A stretch of DNA of 63,826 nucleotides, counting the filler, from Dicyema japonicum (lineage: Eukaryota; Animalia; Dicyemida), in NCBI GenBank assembly GCA_011109175.1. It is 9 parts of 8 records of this genome, joined end to end, with 100 filler letters (N's around TTAATTAATTAA, not from the genome) between each part and the next. Parts side by side here need not be neighbours in the genome. Positions count along the whole stretch, not along the records: positions 1 to 14,939 come from RDEW01000057.1; positions 15,040 to 18,962 come from RDEW01000166.1; positions 19,063 to 40,111 come from RDEW01000031.1; positions 40,212 to 45,147 come from RDEW01000008.1; positions 45,248 to 48,994 come from RDEW01000008.1; positions 49,095 to 51,427 come from RDEW01000007.1; positions 51,528 to 59,332 come from RDEW01000077.1; positions 59,433 to 61,992 come from RDEW01000092.1; 1 more part is not named here. One strand, 5' to 3'. This document shows, in pieces, positions 6,392-63,826 of this stretch. Position numbers and translations under genes: made by a program. The first letter of the stretch is position 1. The number at the start of each line of letters is the position of its first letter. Below the pieces are notes generated by a model, which was given only the letters and a program-made list of their open reading frames with translations, had not been told where the DNA came from and did not search any database.

Positions 6392-7907
6392 CTATGTAAT
6401 ATCTACTTCAGAGTTTTTAATATCTTTTGGAGAACTATTTTTAATTCCTAAAGATCTAAAATATATTGAATTTATATTACATGTTAAATTGCTTAATTTT
6501 TTTACGGAGAAAAATATTTTGATTTTTAAGTTTTTTAACTTTAACTGATAAATTTTTTTTTTCTTCTGATGTTTTATGTAGTTCATTCTTCATTATGTTG
6601 TACTTGTTATTTAATATTAATTATATTTACTTCAAATGTATGCTTCTTTGTCATTTCTGATTTTATTTGGTTAATTTGATTATCGAAAAGTTTTGAAATG
6701 GTTTTAATTTGGTCTGAATTTAAAAGAAATTTATTGTTTTCAATTTCTTTGCTGAGTTTCTGAAATATCGTAGTCGAGTCTATGCCACTGTTCTCTTTAT
6801 TTACTAAATTAAATTATTCCCATGAAAAACCGAGCTCGTCCACTTCCAATAAGAGTTTCTCGGATGTCAATTCGGATCTATAATTAGATTTAATTAACAT
6901 TTTGATTAAAATAATGTGAATATTTTACTTGATTGATTTTGATTCTTCTCCAATTTTCTCGTAATTATCATTAACGGGTTCACTAAATATTGGCAATTAG
7001 TTATTGAAATAAGGAAACATTAATATGTTAGTAATATTACTTAAAAATAATACTCTTATTTTAAGCGATTTTGGGATATACAAATCAAGCTTTTTACTCA
7101 CCTAACAATTGTGATATGAGGCCAAGCCCTAAGATCAGCCTCTCTAATTGGCATATCTTTCTTTATAAAGGAATCCTTTGAAATTTCATCATCCTAAAAA
7201 ATATAGCAAATATAATCTACAGAATTATGTATAAACTTATTCTTCATATCTTCAATGATTTGTACACAAAAGGGATCGGAGTTGTTAGACGCGAATATAA
7301 AATGACGCCATTTGGATCGTTCAAGTCCCCAGTGCTTTACTGATCTTATTTTAATGTCGTGCGTGTGCATAACGAACTCCTCAGGGTTTAACATCCCGAA
7401 ACATTCCTGGCATATTATGCACTTGTCGGACTCGGTGTTGTACAATTTTTGTTCAAAAAATCCATTTGATCTTCCAAAACAGTAGTGATGAATTAATGTT
7501 GCCTGTTCCGACAAAGGGAACTCATATATTGGTAGATTTTCGGGAAGAAGCAATTGGCACAGGCGCTCAGCCTCGGAAAGATTTATTAAACCGCAGCCAG
7601 GAGCTTCGATAGGAATTGTTTTTGAATTTTTGAGTGCCATTAGTTGTAGTACATTGCATCTCCCACATACGACATTCATTTTTTGACAGGTCTCGTTGAT
7701 TTTTTTAAGGGAAATGTCTTTTAGAACAGTATTGAGAAATACTGAGAGAACTAGTCTCTTTTCTCCGTTGACTTGAAAACAAGGAATCGACTCGTTCCGT
7801 ACAATCGTAGAGATTTTCGTGTACGAGCCGTCGTTAAGGTGTGGAGGTACTTGTAAATAAGGATCCATTCCCGTTTGCTTCTTATAATTTGAGATAAATG
7901 GAATCAT
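6392..7907 (-). CDS. SKI: SKI/SnoN family transcriptional corepressor, 7 exons, 412 aa
   Basis: Exon 1 has the DHD (IPCFQVNGEKRLVL...GCGLINLSEAERLC) and SAND-like SMAD4-binding domain (HYCFG...CIICQEC...FVMHTH...HWGLERSKWR). Exons 7907-7221, 7193-7102, 6982-6929, 6877-6831, 6803-6631, 6602-6481, 6455-6392 sum to 1239 nt with no internal stop. GT-AG introns of 27, 119, 51, 27, 28 and 25 nt; C-terminal coiled-coil-like tail. Confidence 0.9.
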
Positions 7908-8504
7908 TTCTGGTAAGTAGGTGGGAGATTATAAAACAAGATTACGGCCAGAAAGTATTTTTGTAGGCTTAGTGGAACGGCGAAATATCAATAAAGGCGC
8001 TAATCAGTCGATACAGACGTATTGATTGCAAAGTATATTATCTACATTTTCTCTCGATTAAGCTTTCATTAGTATCACGGAAATGGAATCTTCCTTTTCC
8101 GTGTTTATACTCGTAGCAACGCCTTACGATCAAATTAAAATAAAAGTGCATTTTCCTCTAATCAATATTTTTAAGACTTGCGGATAGACAAGAATGTGAT
8201 TAAATTATCGTTAACTAGAGACCATTTTTTGTGGTTATTTGACAATCATCTTTTGTTTTTTCAGATTAATGAAAAGGAAACATAACATTAAATGCGATAT
8301 TATTTGGATCCCAGAAAAACAATCAAGCATCCTCTTTTATGGTACGTTTACTCCCAAAGTTATCTCCCCACTATTTTTTCTCACTTCGGAATTGTTTTGT
8401 TCATCGACAGCAATTATAGAATCGTGCCGCTGATTTGTGTTCTTCGTCAAATGTGTTAGATATTTTCAAAAACAAATTTGTATTCTACGATAGGCACTCC
8501 AATG

Positions 8505-10080
8505 TTACCAACAATGTCTATATTTGAGTTGTTTGTTAACAAACTTATGATAAATTAAGTTATTTTTAGTTTCTGTTTTCGTAATTTGATGTATCAACCT
8601 CATCCTCTTGGGGTTTACGTTCACTGCACGGATGGGCATATCCATGTCGACGCGCAGTCTAGATTCAGGGGCTACTTCCTCAACATGCATCGATAACCCG
8701 TACCTCGTCTCGGCTTGCATGCTCTCTAAGGTCTTCCGCAACACCAGTGTCTGGATATATGCCTTCATCGTGTCCTCCACTCCGAGCGCCTCCAGATGGT
8801 TCTTGAAGAATTTTGATACAATTCCGTCCCAGGTCATAACGACAGGGACGATTTTCACTTTCGCCCGGTGGATTGCCCCCAGTTTATTTGCCAGCAAGTC
8901 GTATTTGTGGAACTTTTTCACTTCGACCTGCTTGAGACAATTTTGTGAAGTGATCCCCACCTCGATAAGTGTAATTGTGTTGCTCGATTTGTCGTGTACG
9001 AAAATGTCGGGTTTGTTATTCGGGATGGCATTATCCGTCGGAAGGTGAGTGTCAACTCGGATTTCCACAAATTCGTTTGTGGTAACAGATTGGACTGAAT
9101 GGGTTTTTAATTTTTTCGACTTTTTGATCCCATATTGGCGGCATAGATGCAGATGCAGGCATTTGACCACTTCGTTATGGCGTCTGAGATAGGGGCCGTT
9201 AAGCATTCGCCCACACCTGGTGGCAAGGTGATCAACGGTCTTGTTGGATGAGTTGCAGTGGCTGCATTTATTCTCTCCGTTATTGAAAACAAGTTGCGGT
9301 CTTGCAGCAGGCACAAGCTTGCTTCAGTCCGGGGGGAATTGTTTCCATAGATTATCTACCCACCAGATTCATTAACATCAACTTCAGTATTCTTCAGACA
9401 TTGGAACAAAAAGAGTGCAAGGGCTTCTTTTCGATTTTTTCCCGTAAATATTCACGTTGGATTTTCATCAGATTCGGTATTTCAATTCATTTAAATTTCC
9501 AGTATTGTATTTTCGAGATAAGAATTCTGCGATAGTGGCCATATGTGTTTTCTTTGAATTAATATCCTGCTCTTCTTAGGCAGTAGTTATCCTTATGTTC
9601 CAAATCACCATAAAATTGGAGGAGCATTCTCTCCGCTTTATTACTAACTGACTGCGGGCCTCTCTCGAATTCATTTCTTGGAAGATAAAGTCTTTCATTG
9701 TTTGCAGGTTGCAAGTGGATATGACTGTCCGTAAGAATTCGACGGATATTCTTATAAATCTGTTCAAACTCTCCGGGCTCAATATCAATCAGTCCATTGT
9801 AATAGTTATAAAAGGAGAGTGCGTGTTCTTTTATAGCCTTGAACAAGTTTATTGAGTTTAATTTAGTTTTGGTCAAGTTTTTAATCTTCGTGGATGCTTC
9901 TTCATAGATTTTCTCCATAACTTAATTTTTTAGAACGTTGCTACTCTTATCTTCGAGGACCCCCAGAAATCTGTATCCATCCAGCCCATCGAGTAAGCAA
10001 GTTTTCCTGGACAAAGACTTAACAATTAACTTTAAAAATAATTCTCCTAAATGTTAAAAAGTTTTAACTAAAGAATCCAG
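8505..10080 (-). mobile_element. 3' half of an RLE-type (R4/Dong-like) non-LTR retrotransposon, frameshifted
   Basis: YRFLGVLED, RLYLPR, CCHC knuckle CSHC...HLATRC, RRHN, KPDI...IEV RLE motif, KKFHKYDLLA. Confidence 0.88.
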
Positions 10081-62099: not shown

Positions 62100-63310
62100 A
62101 AAGGGTTATCCATTCTGAGAAATCCCAAAAGTCCAAGAGTTACTAGAAGCTGGGATCACTTAATTAGTTGGTTTTAAAACAATTTTGATTTTGTGGTTTC
62201 TAAAATAAATGTGTGATCATTTATCAGTCAAATATCCAACTGATACGTACTTAAGTTTGTAGTCGTATCTAAAGTTATTGGATCCTCTTCTAACTACAAA
62301 CAGCCCAAACTAATCTAAAAGTTATGGATTCAAAGGCAGAATAACAAGATCGATATAACTCAAAGTTTATAGGTTCAGTGTTATTTGATAAAATATTCAA
62401 CATTTTTATGGCTTTTTTTAAATTTGTAACAGCATGATTTGTTCCCCAAGCAACATAAGTACAACTCATTATAGGTTCAATGTATTGTTAGTAAAGAACA
62501 TCTAATCCACTGAGACCTTCGGAGGTTCATAAAAGAGCCCTAAAAGTAAAGCTTCTTCGCGCAAGCTGCTATCACACTTTCGACATGAAGGGGAAAAGTT
62601 AAATGCACGACGAAGGTTACACCCAAGATTTTCTAGGTCTTTTTCTGAGGGATTTTATTTCCATAGAGAGTGATGTCTATAATACACTCTCAGTTGTGAA
62701 TAAAGTCAAAACTTACTTTCCTGTACTTGCCTGTAACTGATTTTTGTCAAGTCATAAACTAAGATTGTCCAAACAATCCTATAATCTAAATGCAGAATTT
62801 TTCTCGATGCGTCCACAATGTCGTCTGCGTAGGAAAGCAGGATTTGGTTATCTCCATTTACCAGCGGTAGATTGCTCATTATTAAATAGGACATGAAATA
62901 GAAAAGATGTTGTGAAATCCCATTCGGTAATTGCCTTGACATAAAACATCGGTTTCCATGATGCCTCTACCCCAACCTTCACTCAAAAAATTCTCCAACC
63001 ATAGTTTCAAATTTGATTCAATATTCAGGGAATTGATTTTTTGTATAATAATTTTTCGCGAAACAGAATCAAAAGCCTTTTGGATATCAATCGAGCAGAC
63101 AATTGACTTTCTTGTTTGGGCTTTTTACATATGTCATCATAAATTTCTTTGTAGAAGTTAAACACGATGTAGTCGATAGTCCTTTCTTAAAAACATTCTG
63201 AAATGTGAGTTCTGGGAATGAAGGGTGAATCCGTCACAGAATCAAATTTCAAGAATTCTCAATTGGACACATAAAAGAAATATACCTCTTGGAGCCCTGG
63301 TTTTCTTTCG
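62100..63310. mobile_element. Jockey/I-like LINE pieces: 3' end at 62100-62200 (+), RT at 62230-63310 (-)
   Basis: EAGIT*; KKGLSTTS, SYADD, QYIEP...AWG. Confidence 0.75.
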
Positions 63311-63404
63311 GTTTCTCCGATTATTATTAATTTATTTTATTTATTAATAAATTTAAAATAATTGGTTAATAATTCAAAATTATAAATTCTCGTCATCCTT
63401 GTTA

Positions 63405-63826
63405 ATGATTATATTAATAATAATTTCCCTCTCCATTCAAAGCGAATTTTCTCAATTTGAAGTTGACGGTACTCCATATAGTCATTTATAAGATGTCAAT
63501 TCACAAGTGGAAATCACAGGAACAACAGGAAAAGTGGAAAGCACTATTTATGAAAATGAGTCTGAGACTGTTCCCGAACTAGAGGAAAATGTAAATATAC
63601 AATTAAGTGATAGTCCATAACCATAGAGGAGGACAGTGACTATAATATAAATATGATAAAGTCAACGAAAGTAATATTATGAATTATTAGATACCACTCA
63701 ATTGGGTTGATTATTATGTGGAAATTGGATTCATTCTCTTCATGATCCTCTATTTGATTACATATATTAATGGACGAGGTAACAACAGGGACATTGCCAA
63801 GACCATCCTGGATGACTTTAGACCCA
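63405..63826 (+). pseudogene. CCDC47: CCDC47 (PAT complex subunit)-like 5' part, apparently pseudogenised, runs off the window
   Basis: Signal-like MIILIIISLSIQSEFSQFEVD, acidic stretch, 20-nt intron at 63671-63690, then IPLNWVDYYVEIGFILFMILYLITYINGRGNNRDIAK (compare WESYYLEIL...YIIGKNKNSRLA); TAA at 63489 and a frameshift. Confidence 0.65.

Follow-up and report, generated by a model that had tools for sequence, protein, structure and literature searches.

Genes in a stretch of 63,826 nucleotides of DNA, spacers included (here called the window), are interrupted by very short AT-rich segments, and the question is whether these are spliceosomal introns in an animal genome, and if so in which animal. 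The window comprises nine stretches joined by N-linker-N spacers and is therefore not one locus. Seven of its genes together hold 25 introns of 20–28 nt and four of 51–119 nt, and all of the short sizes listed in the preliminary description were located at defined coordinates (Table 1). We consider it probable that the short segments are genuine GT-AG introns, likely spliced by the U2 machinery, of a reduced, fast-evolving parasitic animal, probably a dicyemid living in octopuses.

Table 1. Genes, introns and a retroelement located in the window
Feature	Position	Strand	Basis or remark
SKI/Sno gene, intact	6392–7907	−	Pfam Ski_Sno_DHD and c-SKI_SMAD_bind; ORF model; spliced X6 contig
SKI intron 1, 27 nt	7194–7220	−	GT-AG, in-frame TAG at end; 27 gaps in X6 piece 7102–7899; depth bin 15 of 25.1
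SKI intron 2, 119 nt	6983–7101	−	X6 joint 6982–7102, CT..AC
SKI intron 3, 51 nt	6878–6928	−	X6 joint 6877–6932, 3 letters between
SKI intron 4, 27 nt	6804–6830	−	Share of 80 gaps in X6 piece 6384–6877; depth bin agrees
SKI intron 5, 28 nt	6603–6630	−	Depth bin 14.6 of 25.1, agrees with 28 nt
SKI intron 6, 25 nt	6456–6480	−	Depth bin 15.7 of 25.1, agrees with 25 nt
Non-LTR retroelement adjoining SKI	8508–9921	−	Octopus sinensis protein matches; lineage clue
SRCAP/SWR1 helicase-C fragment, frameshifted	20400–21000	−	Human SRCAP, E 7e-31
SRCAP introns	20957–20979 (23), 20763–20786 (24), 20545–20566 (22)	−	22-nt intron ends AA
CPSF3, broken copy	25000–27335	−	Exonic stops and frameshifts; similarity to human CPSF3 in each of three frames; exon translations
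CPSF3 introns	27261–27285 (25), 27176–27196 (21), 27056–27078 (23), 26835–26928 (94), 26560–26584 (25), 26383–26407 (25), 26126–26205 (80), 25949–25972 (24), 25780–25802 (23), 25465–25490 (26)	−	24-nt intron starts GA
Reprolysin-like gene	44387–45147	+	Pfam PF01421; cut by stretch end; zinc motif degenerate
Reprolysin-like introns	44510–44535 (26), 44608–44630 (23), 44774–44797 (24), 45020–45041 (22)	+	
PBRM1-like bromodomain insert, 21 nt	49233–49253	−	GC..AG; gap versus human polybromo-1; in broken fragment
Orphan gene	61528–61992	+	Frame restoration only
Orphan introns	61544–61567 (24), 61729–61753 (25)	+	
CCDC47, 5′ part	63390–63826	+	Weak Pfam PF07946, E 5e-4; frame restoration
CCDC47 introns	63469–63492 (24), 63591–63613 (23), 63671–63690 (20)	+	

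Splicing of the SKI gene

The SKI gene is metazoan, and its coding region (7907 to 6392) yields an open reading frame of 412 residues once six predicted introns, in the order 27, 119, 51, 27, 28 and 25 nt, are taken out. Models of this kind need independent evidence, because chance GT-AG pairs are common: in the intronless first exon of SKI, 11 of 32 GTs also have an AG 20–28 nt downstream. For SKI such evidence was found. It comes from X6, a sequencing run with no recorded library type, made from a close relative of 94% similarity. In X6, a 1243-nt contig is missing precisely the six predicted introns: it skips 119 and about 51 nt and has internal gaps of 27 and 80 nt, the latter equal to 27 + 28 + 25. 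The exonic length of the model, 1239 nt, equals the number of X6 letters mapped, and the model agrees with X6 depth within 0.1 in 29 of 30 bins.

The introns are present in X5, a DNA-type run (16 of 18 listed variants are common to it and X6); there a single contig crosses the stretch with 22 gap letters in total. The X6 contig thus lacks all six SKI introns where X5 has them, a comparison made in a relative, not in the same organism, and for SKI only. The organism of the window is itself represented by contigs of low depth in runs X2 and X3 (library kind unrecorded), and these retain the introns; a search for RNA runs containing it listed none. The SKI segments are genuine introns, removed from the relative's SKI transcript, and splicing is documented in a single gene and a single run, both from that relative. 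The preliminary description had counted a SKI mRNA that terminates at the TAG at 7194 as evidence against splicing; no such ending is seen in the relative's spliced X6 contig. Its central claim, that spliceosomal micro-introns occur here in an animal genome, is borne out by a metazoan gene from whose spliced form all six segments are missing.

Sizes, signals and a possible route of recognition

The 25 short introns are 78% AT and have a median length of 24 nt, with Q10/25/50/75 at 22/23/24/26 nt. Their termini are GT-AG in 22 cases and GC-AG in one, and one further intron starts with GA and another ends in AA; all three exceptions fall in broken gene copies. Splice signals amount to little beyond GT(A/T) and the terminal AG. 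That introns of this size can barely accommodate a branch point plus a pyrimidine tract, as had been proposed, is consistent with our counts: the branch motif YTRAY is found in 10 of the 25 against 7.9 in shuffled sequence, with no significant enrichment (p 0.24), and T stands at positions −5 to −3 in 13–17 introns against an AT-rich background. AGs ending at positions 4–17 are skipped in nine introns, and in one case an AG at 20 is ignored and the AG at 24 used. U12-type introns have the extended 5′ consensus RTATCCTT; C at position +5, from that motif, occurs in none of the 25, and an Rfam search of the window returned no snRNA. Every frame-preserving intron contains a stop (10 of 10, 6.9 expected, P 0.02), an enrichment that is only a hint, since with the ORF-ascertained cases set aside the count is seven of seven against 5.1 expected (P 0.11).

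The ordinary major (U2-type) spliceosome likely processes such introns, presumably by intron definition. U1 would bind the GT, a weak A-rich branch would be used within the short AT-rich segment, and the AG met at about 20–28 nt would become the 3′ site. The narrow range of sizes may combine a geometric floor with pressure for shortness, and may stand in for lost sequence signals. Because retention of any single SKI intron truncates the reading frame, nonsense-mediated decay would be expected to clear most transcripts with retained introns. It is conceivable that the spliceosome has been modified so as to measure length, as suggested earlier.

Lineage of the organism

The LINE adjoining SKI offers a clue to the organism. 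Octopus sinensis is the host of Dicyema japonicum, and the top 12 matches of this LINE, and 21 among the 120 listed, are O. sinensis proteins on small scaffolds. Those with the best matches measure at most 1.3 Mb, in an assembly with an N50 of 106 Mb and 5.2% duplicated BUSCOs. It is likely that a set of O. sinensis RefSeq proteins on small scaffolds derives from a co-sequenced parasite related to the window organism; a literature search found no printed report of parasite DNA in that assembly. A pattern for the 18S fragment of the window (21506–21612) gave 0 matches in metagenome contigs, and Atlas searches yielded no hint of the lineage. The window is LINE-rich, with clade names assigned by eye, and its repeat mix resembles the list for D. 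japonicum (CRE, Dong-R4, Jockey, RTE, TcMar and hAT). Intron quantiles in D. japonicum are 22/23/24/25, with a median of 24 nt (PMC6736024; table S14 of PMC13644364), close to those of the window, where long introns are under-sampled and the match is biased accordingly. On the size quartiles and the LINE matches together, we favour a dicyemid with reasonable, if incomplete, confidence.

The same real micro-introns might belong to a myxobolid or a related myxozoan, which we regard as rather unlikely. Myxobolid genomes are AT-rich and repeat-rich, with median intron sizes of 22–27 nt and signals likewise reduced to GTa/AG, and the 25–28 nt introns of SKI suit Henneguya salminicola no less than Dicyema sp. 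(median 27). However, 10 of the 25 window introns do not exceed 23 nt and lie under the Q10 of 24 in H. salminicola, and only five are 22 nt or shorter, unlike Thelohanellus kitauei, in which LINEs make up only 0.07% as against the LINE-rich window. T. kitauei proteins are present in NCBI; the 120 listed LINE matches include no myxozoan name, and a word-based search with a SKI exon found no close homolog of 134–427 aa, absence in such searches being weak evidence.

A third, unreported animal lineage, possibly an unrecognised parasite, is more doubtful still; such an organism would have relatives inside the published octopus assembly, would choose its 3′ AG chiefly by how far this lies from the GT, and would use nonsense-mediated decay as a proofreader. 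More lineages of this type are expected in PMC13644364. The best 150 matches listed, out of 1.84 billion representatives, include no protein more than 43% identical to this SKI, and no named dicyemid or myxozoan sequence matches directly. A quick-mode tree of 152 rows does not place the window: its SKI has a branch of 2.51 and groups weakly (83) beside a bryozoan and an unnamed protein. To our knowledge, however, dicyemid proteomes are largely absent from the sources searched, which would explain the blank, and Dicyemida agree with the window in intron sizes, splice signals, kinds of repeat and the octopus connection. Were the organism neither dicyemid nor myxobolid, the window would gain in importance.

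Broken gene copies and known systems

Stops or frameshifts mark the window copies of CPSF3, SRCAP and PBRM1 as broken or partial; these are probably broken duplicates whose introns were inherited from the parent genes. Homology on both sides of the introns had been claimed for these three genes and for the reprolysin-like gene. It holds for the 21-nt CPSF3, 24-nt SRCAP and 21-nt PBRM1 introns, which correspond to gaps of seven, eight and seven residues against human CPSF3, SRCAP and polybromo-1. It does not extend to the reprolysin-like gene, whose frame is open only once its four introns are removed; there, as in CCDC47 and the orphan gene (our own assignment of the gene so named before), boundaries come from frame restoration, not close homology. 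In CCDC47 the 20-nt intron was located as described, and two further candidates of 24 and 23 nt had been overlooked. The PBRM1 match is absent near 33000–34300 and at 57250–58450, and the fragment sits at about 49150–49430.

Run X1 contains several divergent DNA copies of CPSF3. A heavily amplified CPSF3 repeat was considered and dropped, single variants at depths of about 450–780 indicating a few copies. Against X6, X7 and X8 the CPSF3 copy aligns in patches only, with two joints short by 100 and 76 letters (117 and 80 expected); the contigs may come from other species, and these joints are not counted as confirmation of splicing. A word-based homolog search with a CPSF3 exon gave no match.

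That the short segments are assembly errors, or debris left by indels in decaying genes, bounded by chance GT-AG pairs, as three broken genes of seven with three non-canonical ends and the frequency of such pairs might suggest, is very improbable, and for SKI largely refuted, given the precise absence of all six segments from the relative's contig, their presence in the DNA run, and whole-codon gaps against human proteins flanked by GT or GC and AG.

For genuine introns of 20–28 nt, near the lower size limit of splicing, recognition is still called open in PMC13644364, and gene finders with a 30-nt floor overlook them. The surprise attached to tiny introns in an animal is not warranted, the trait being in print for dicyemids and myxobolids. 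The dicyemid reports date from 2007 and 2019 (Dicyema acuticephalum, PMC2222250; Dicyema sp., PMC6543705; D. japonicum, PMC6736024). Dicyemids share with the window a narrow 20–28 nt class with a median of 24, more than one intron in a gene, splice signals pared down to GTa...AG, and a repeat-rich genome with many LINEs. We find no difference in the introns themselves; the window's many broken duplicate genes are not mentioned in the available text of those papers.

Myxobolid short introns were published in 2014 and 2026 (T. kitauei, PMC4986447; H. salminicola and Myxobolus spp., PMC13644364). They share with the window conserved positions, lengths below 30 nt, weak motifs at the 5′ and 3′ ends and, probably, a missing pyrimidine tract. 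They differ in a long tail (Q75 38–332 nt) and in peaks at 20–22 or 25–27 nt, whereas the window centres on 23–25; Q10/25/50/75 are 20/21/22/54 in T. kitauei and 24/25/27/38 in H. salminicola. The canonical U2 branch-recognition region and U2AF1/2 occur in all myxozoans examined, according to PMC13644364.

Paramecium (20–35 nt), Stentor (15–16 nt) and the Bigelowiella nucleomorph (18–21 nt), as cited in PMC2222250 and PMC13644364, likewise have minimal GT-AG introns whose narrow length holds much of the information. Those lineages are unrelated and convergent, whereas the window genome is metazoan. The tiny-intron phenomenon is thus already known, and the window adds no new principle to it, serving instead as a detailed illustration in which DNA (X5) and transcript (X6) form a pair.

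Splicing of SKI

That micro-introns are real, as the preliminary description proposed, is well supported for SKI (the SKI/Sno gene), where a spliced contig from sequencing run X6 (organism C) can be set against an intron-keeping one from run X5 (possibly DNA, organism B). Nine runs contain part of the SKI stretch, none recorded as RNA, and four were aligned to window positions 6100-8100. In the single X6 contig of 1243 letters (1239 mapped, 70 differing), SKI lacks a segment of 119 nt (CT..AC) and another of about 51 nt, and the aligned pieces contain gaps of 27 and 80 letters. 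Depth in X6 fits the six-intron model within 0.1 in 29 of 30 bins; the exception is offset by 3 letters that the aligner left between the two flanks of the 51-nt joint. One X5 contig crosses the stretch with 132 differences, and since it has only 22 gap letters, the SKI introns are kept in X5. X5 and X6 have 16 of 18 variants in common, among those listed within the span of X6, and therefore serve as paired DNA and transcript sequences. Intron sequence is also retained in X2 and X3, low-depth runs from the window's own organism whose library kind is unrecorded.

From the form of its contig, we infer that X6 is RNA. A processed DNA copy as its source would likewise imply that splicing had occurred. 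Spliced SKI encodes 412 aa, and any single retained intron shortens the protein to 237-392 aa.

The intron set and its signals

Every intron size listed previously was found at a defined position. Introns of 20-28 nt number 25, and four longer ones measure 51, 80, 94, and 119 nt. They are distributed over SKI, CPSF3, SRCAP, CCDC47, a reprolysin-like gene, an orphan gene, and a PBRM1-like fragment; the 25 include two additions in CCDC47, of 24 and 23 nt. The short introns have a median of 24 nt, are 78% AT, and use the three phases about equally (9, 8, 8).

Chance GT-AG pairs are common at this spacing (11 of 32 GTs in the intronless exon of SKI have an AG at 20-28 nt), and independent support was therefore sought. 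Human CPSF3 aligns to the window in all three frames, and its alignment is interrupted for 7 residues at the 21-nt intron; an 8-residue gap in the human SRCAP alignment lies at the 24-nt intron, and a 7-residue gap in that of human polybromo-1 at the 21-nt insert of the PBRM1-like fragment. The earlier view that homology fixes introns in all these genes and the reprolysin-like gene holds for these three codon-length gaps, whereas boundaries in the reprolysin-like gene are based on frame restoration, as they are in CCDC47 and the orphan.

The short introns begin with GTA (16) or GTT (8), and the letter preceding the 3′ terminal dinucleotide is T in 16, A in 4, C in 4, and G in 1. A branch motif is not enriched (10 of 25 versus 7.9 in shuffled sequences), and a U12 motif was sought in the 25 and not found. 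Nine introns pass over AGs ending at positions 4-17, and the open frame of the reprolysin-like gene requires the AG at 24, not that at 20. All 10 frame-preserving introns contain an in-frame stop; in their unbiased subset the excess is not significant (7 of 7 versus 5.1 expected, P 0.11). The major spliceosome would most likely recognise these segments by intron definition, under a size floor perhaps near 20 nt and with a probably weak, A-rich branch site; retained-intron transcripts may be removed by decay.

Broken copies and mobile elements

CPSF3 is normally a single essential gene. Its window copy is broken by stops and frameshifts in exons; the SRCAP copy is a frameshifted fragment, and the PBRM1-like piece contains stops. 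All three non-canonical intron ends (GA, GC, AA) lie inside these copies. Run X1 carries several divergent CPSF3 copies (256 contigs over 2.4 kb, about 2-6 copies per position); some contigs carry additional bases at points of frame shift in the window, and at some sites every contig differs from the window. Because the copies are broken, and those of CPSF3 divergent in X1, their introns are records inherited from parent genes. Surrounded by transposon debris, the SRCAP helicase fragment adjoins a 107-nt decayed 18S rRNA fragment, an arrangement that suggests capture or duplication of host pieces. An extra candidate 20-nt GT-AG intron, outside the 25, lies just upstream of the PBRM1-like bromodomain fragment.

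The window is AT-rich, its nine stretches are separated by N-linker-N spacers, with a few gaps also inside stretches, and remnants of mobile elements, with reverse transcriptases and DDE_1, Tc3-like, and hAT domains, fill much of it. One reverse-transcriptase ORF has a weak N-terminal PHD finger, and four fragments have, by eye, a similar C-terminal tail. The zinc-binding motif of the reprolysin-like gene is degenerate; a second, decayed copy ~2.7 kb upstream hints at a lineage-specific family.

Coordinates of features in the window
Feature	Position	Strand
SKI	7907-6392	minus
Non-LTR LINE beside SKI	8508-9921	minus
Reverse-transcriptase ORF	16981-18960	
Fragments with similar tail	~1624-1899, 14815-14935, 46615-46947, 60980-61400	
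SRCAP and 18S fragments	20400-21612	
Broken CPSF3 copy	25000-27400	
Decayed reprolysin-like copy	41600-42070	
ORF pieces, no Pfam or Atlas match	43200-44165	minus
Reprolysin-like gene	44300-45147	
Candidate 20-nt intron	49420-49440	
Orphan	61528-61992	plus

SKI is metazoan and its named matches are various animals; the window's SKI is strongly diverged (32-43% identity across the best 150 matches listed), and a tree gave no placement for it. For the LINE beside it, the top 12 matches are Octopus sinensis proteins (54-84% identity), this species accounts for 21 of the 120 matches listed, and most others are microsporidian or unnamed; none of the 120 bears a myxozoan name. None of the scaffolds that carry these octopus proteins exceeds 1.3 Mb; their assembly has an N50 of 106 Mb and is 86% in chromosomes, according to the accessible part of PMC10700109, which also gives duplicated BUSCOs as 5.2%, versus 0.4-0.5% in O. 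vulgaris and O. bimaculoides. Given the small scaffolds and raised duplication, we infer that these scaffolds come from a co-sequenced animal parasite. The octopus-scaffold and microsporidian relatives suggest a retroelement family common to different parasites.

Comparison with dicyemids and myxobolids

Dicyemids are cephalopod parasites having introns of such size. In the accessible parts of the sources, 16 Dicyema introns are given as 26.2 nt (PMC2222250), the median in Dicyema sp. as 27 (PMC6543705, which cites Ogino 2010), the D. japonicum mean as 38, with 49% repeats (PMC6736024), and T. kitauei introns as 20-25 nt (PMC4986447); the accessible part of PMC11557904 makes no mention of introns. 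Myxobolid medians are 22-27 nt and D. japonicum sizes similar, splice signals are reduced to GTa and AG, branch sites may be weak runs of A, and U2 and U2AF1/2 are conserved in myxozoans (PMC13644364). Ultra-short introns as a phenomenon are already described for dicyemids and myxobolids, the two lineages likeliest for this animal. It is probably a dicyemid, much less likely a myxozoan, and with low probability a member of another lineage; such a third lineage, or a demonstrated length-measuring mechanism, would go beyond what is described.

As far as the accessible source portions extend, the window's repeat mix resembles the D. japonicum repeat list (PMC6736024), unlike the T. kitauei genome with 0.07% LINEs (PMC4986447). 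Quantiles of the window's short introns, 22/23/24/26, are closer to those of D. japonicum (22/23/24/25 in the accessible part of the PMC13644364 supplement) than to those of myxobolids, long introns being under-sampled in the window.
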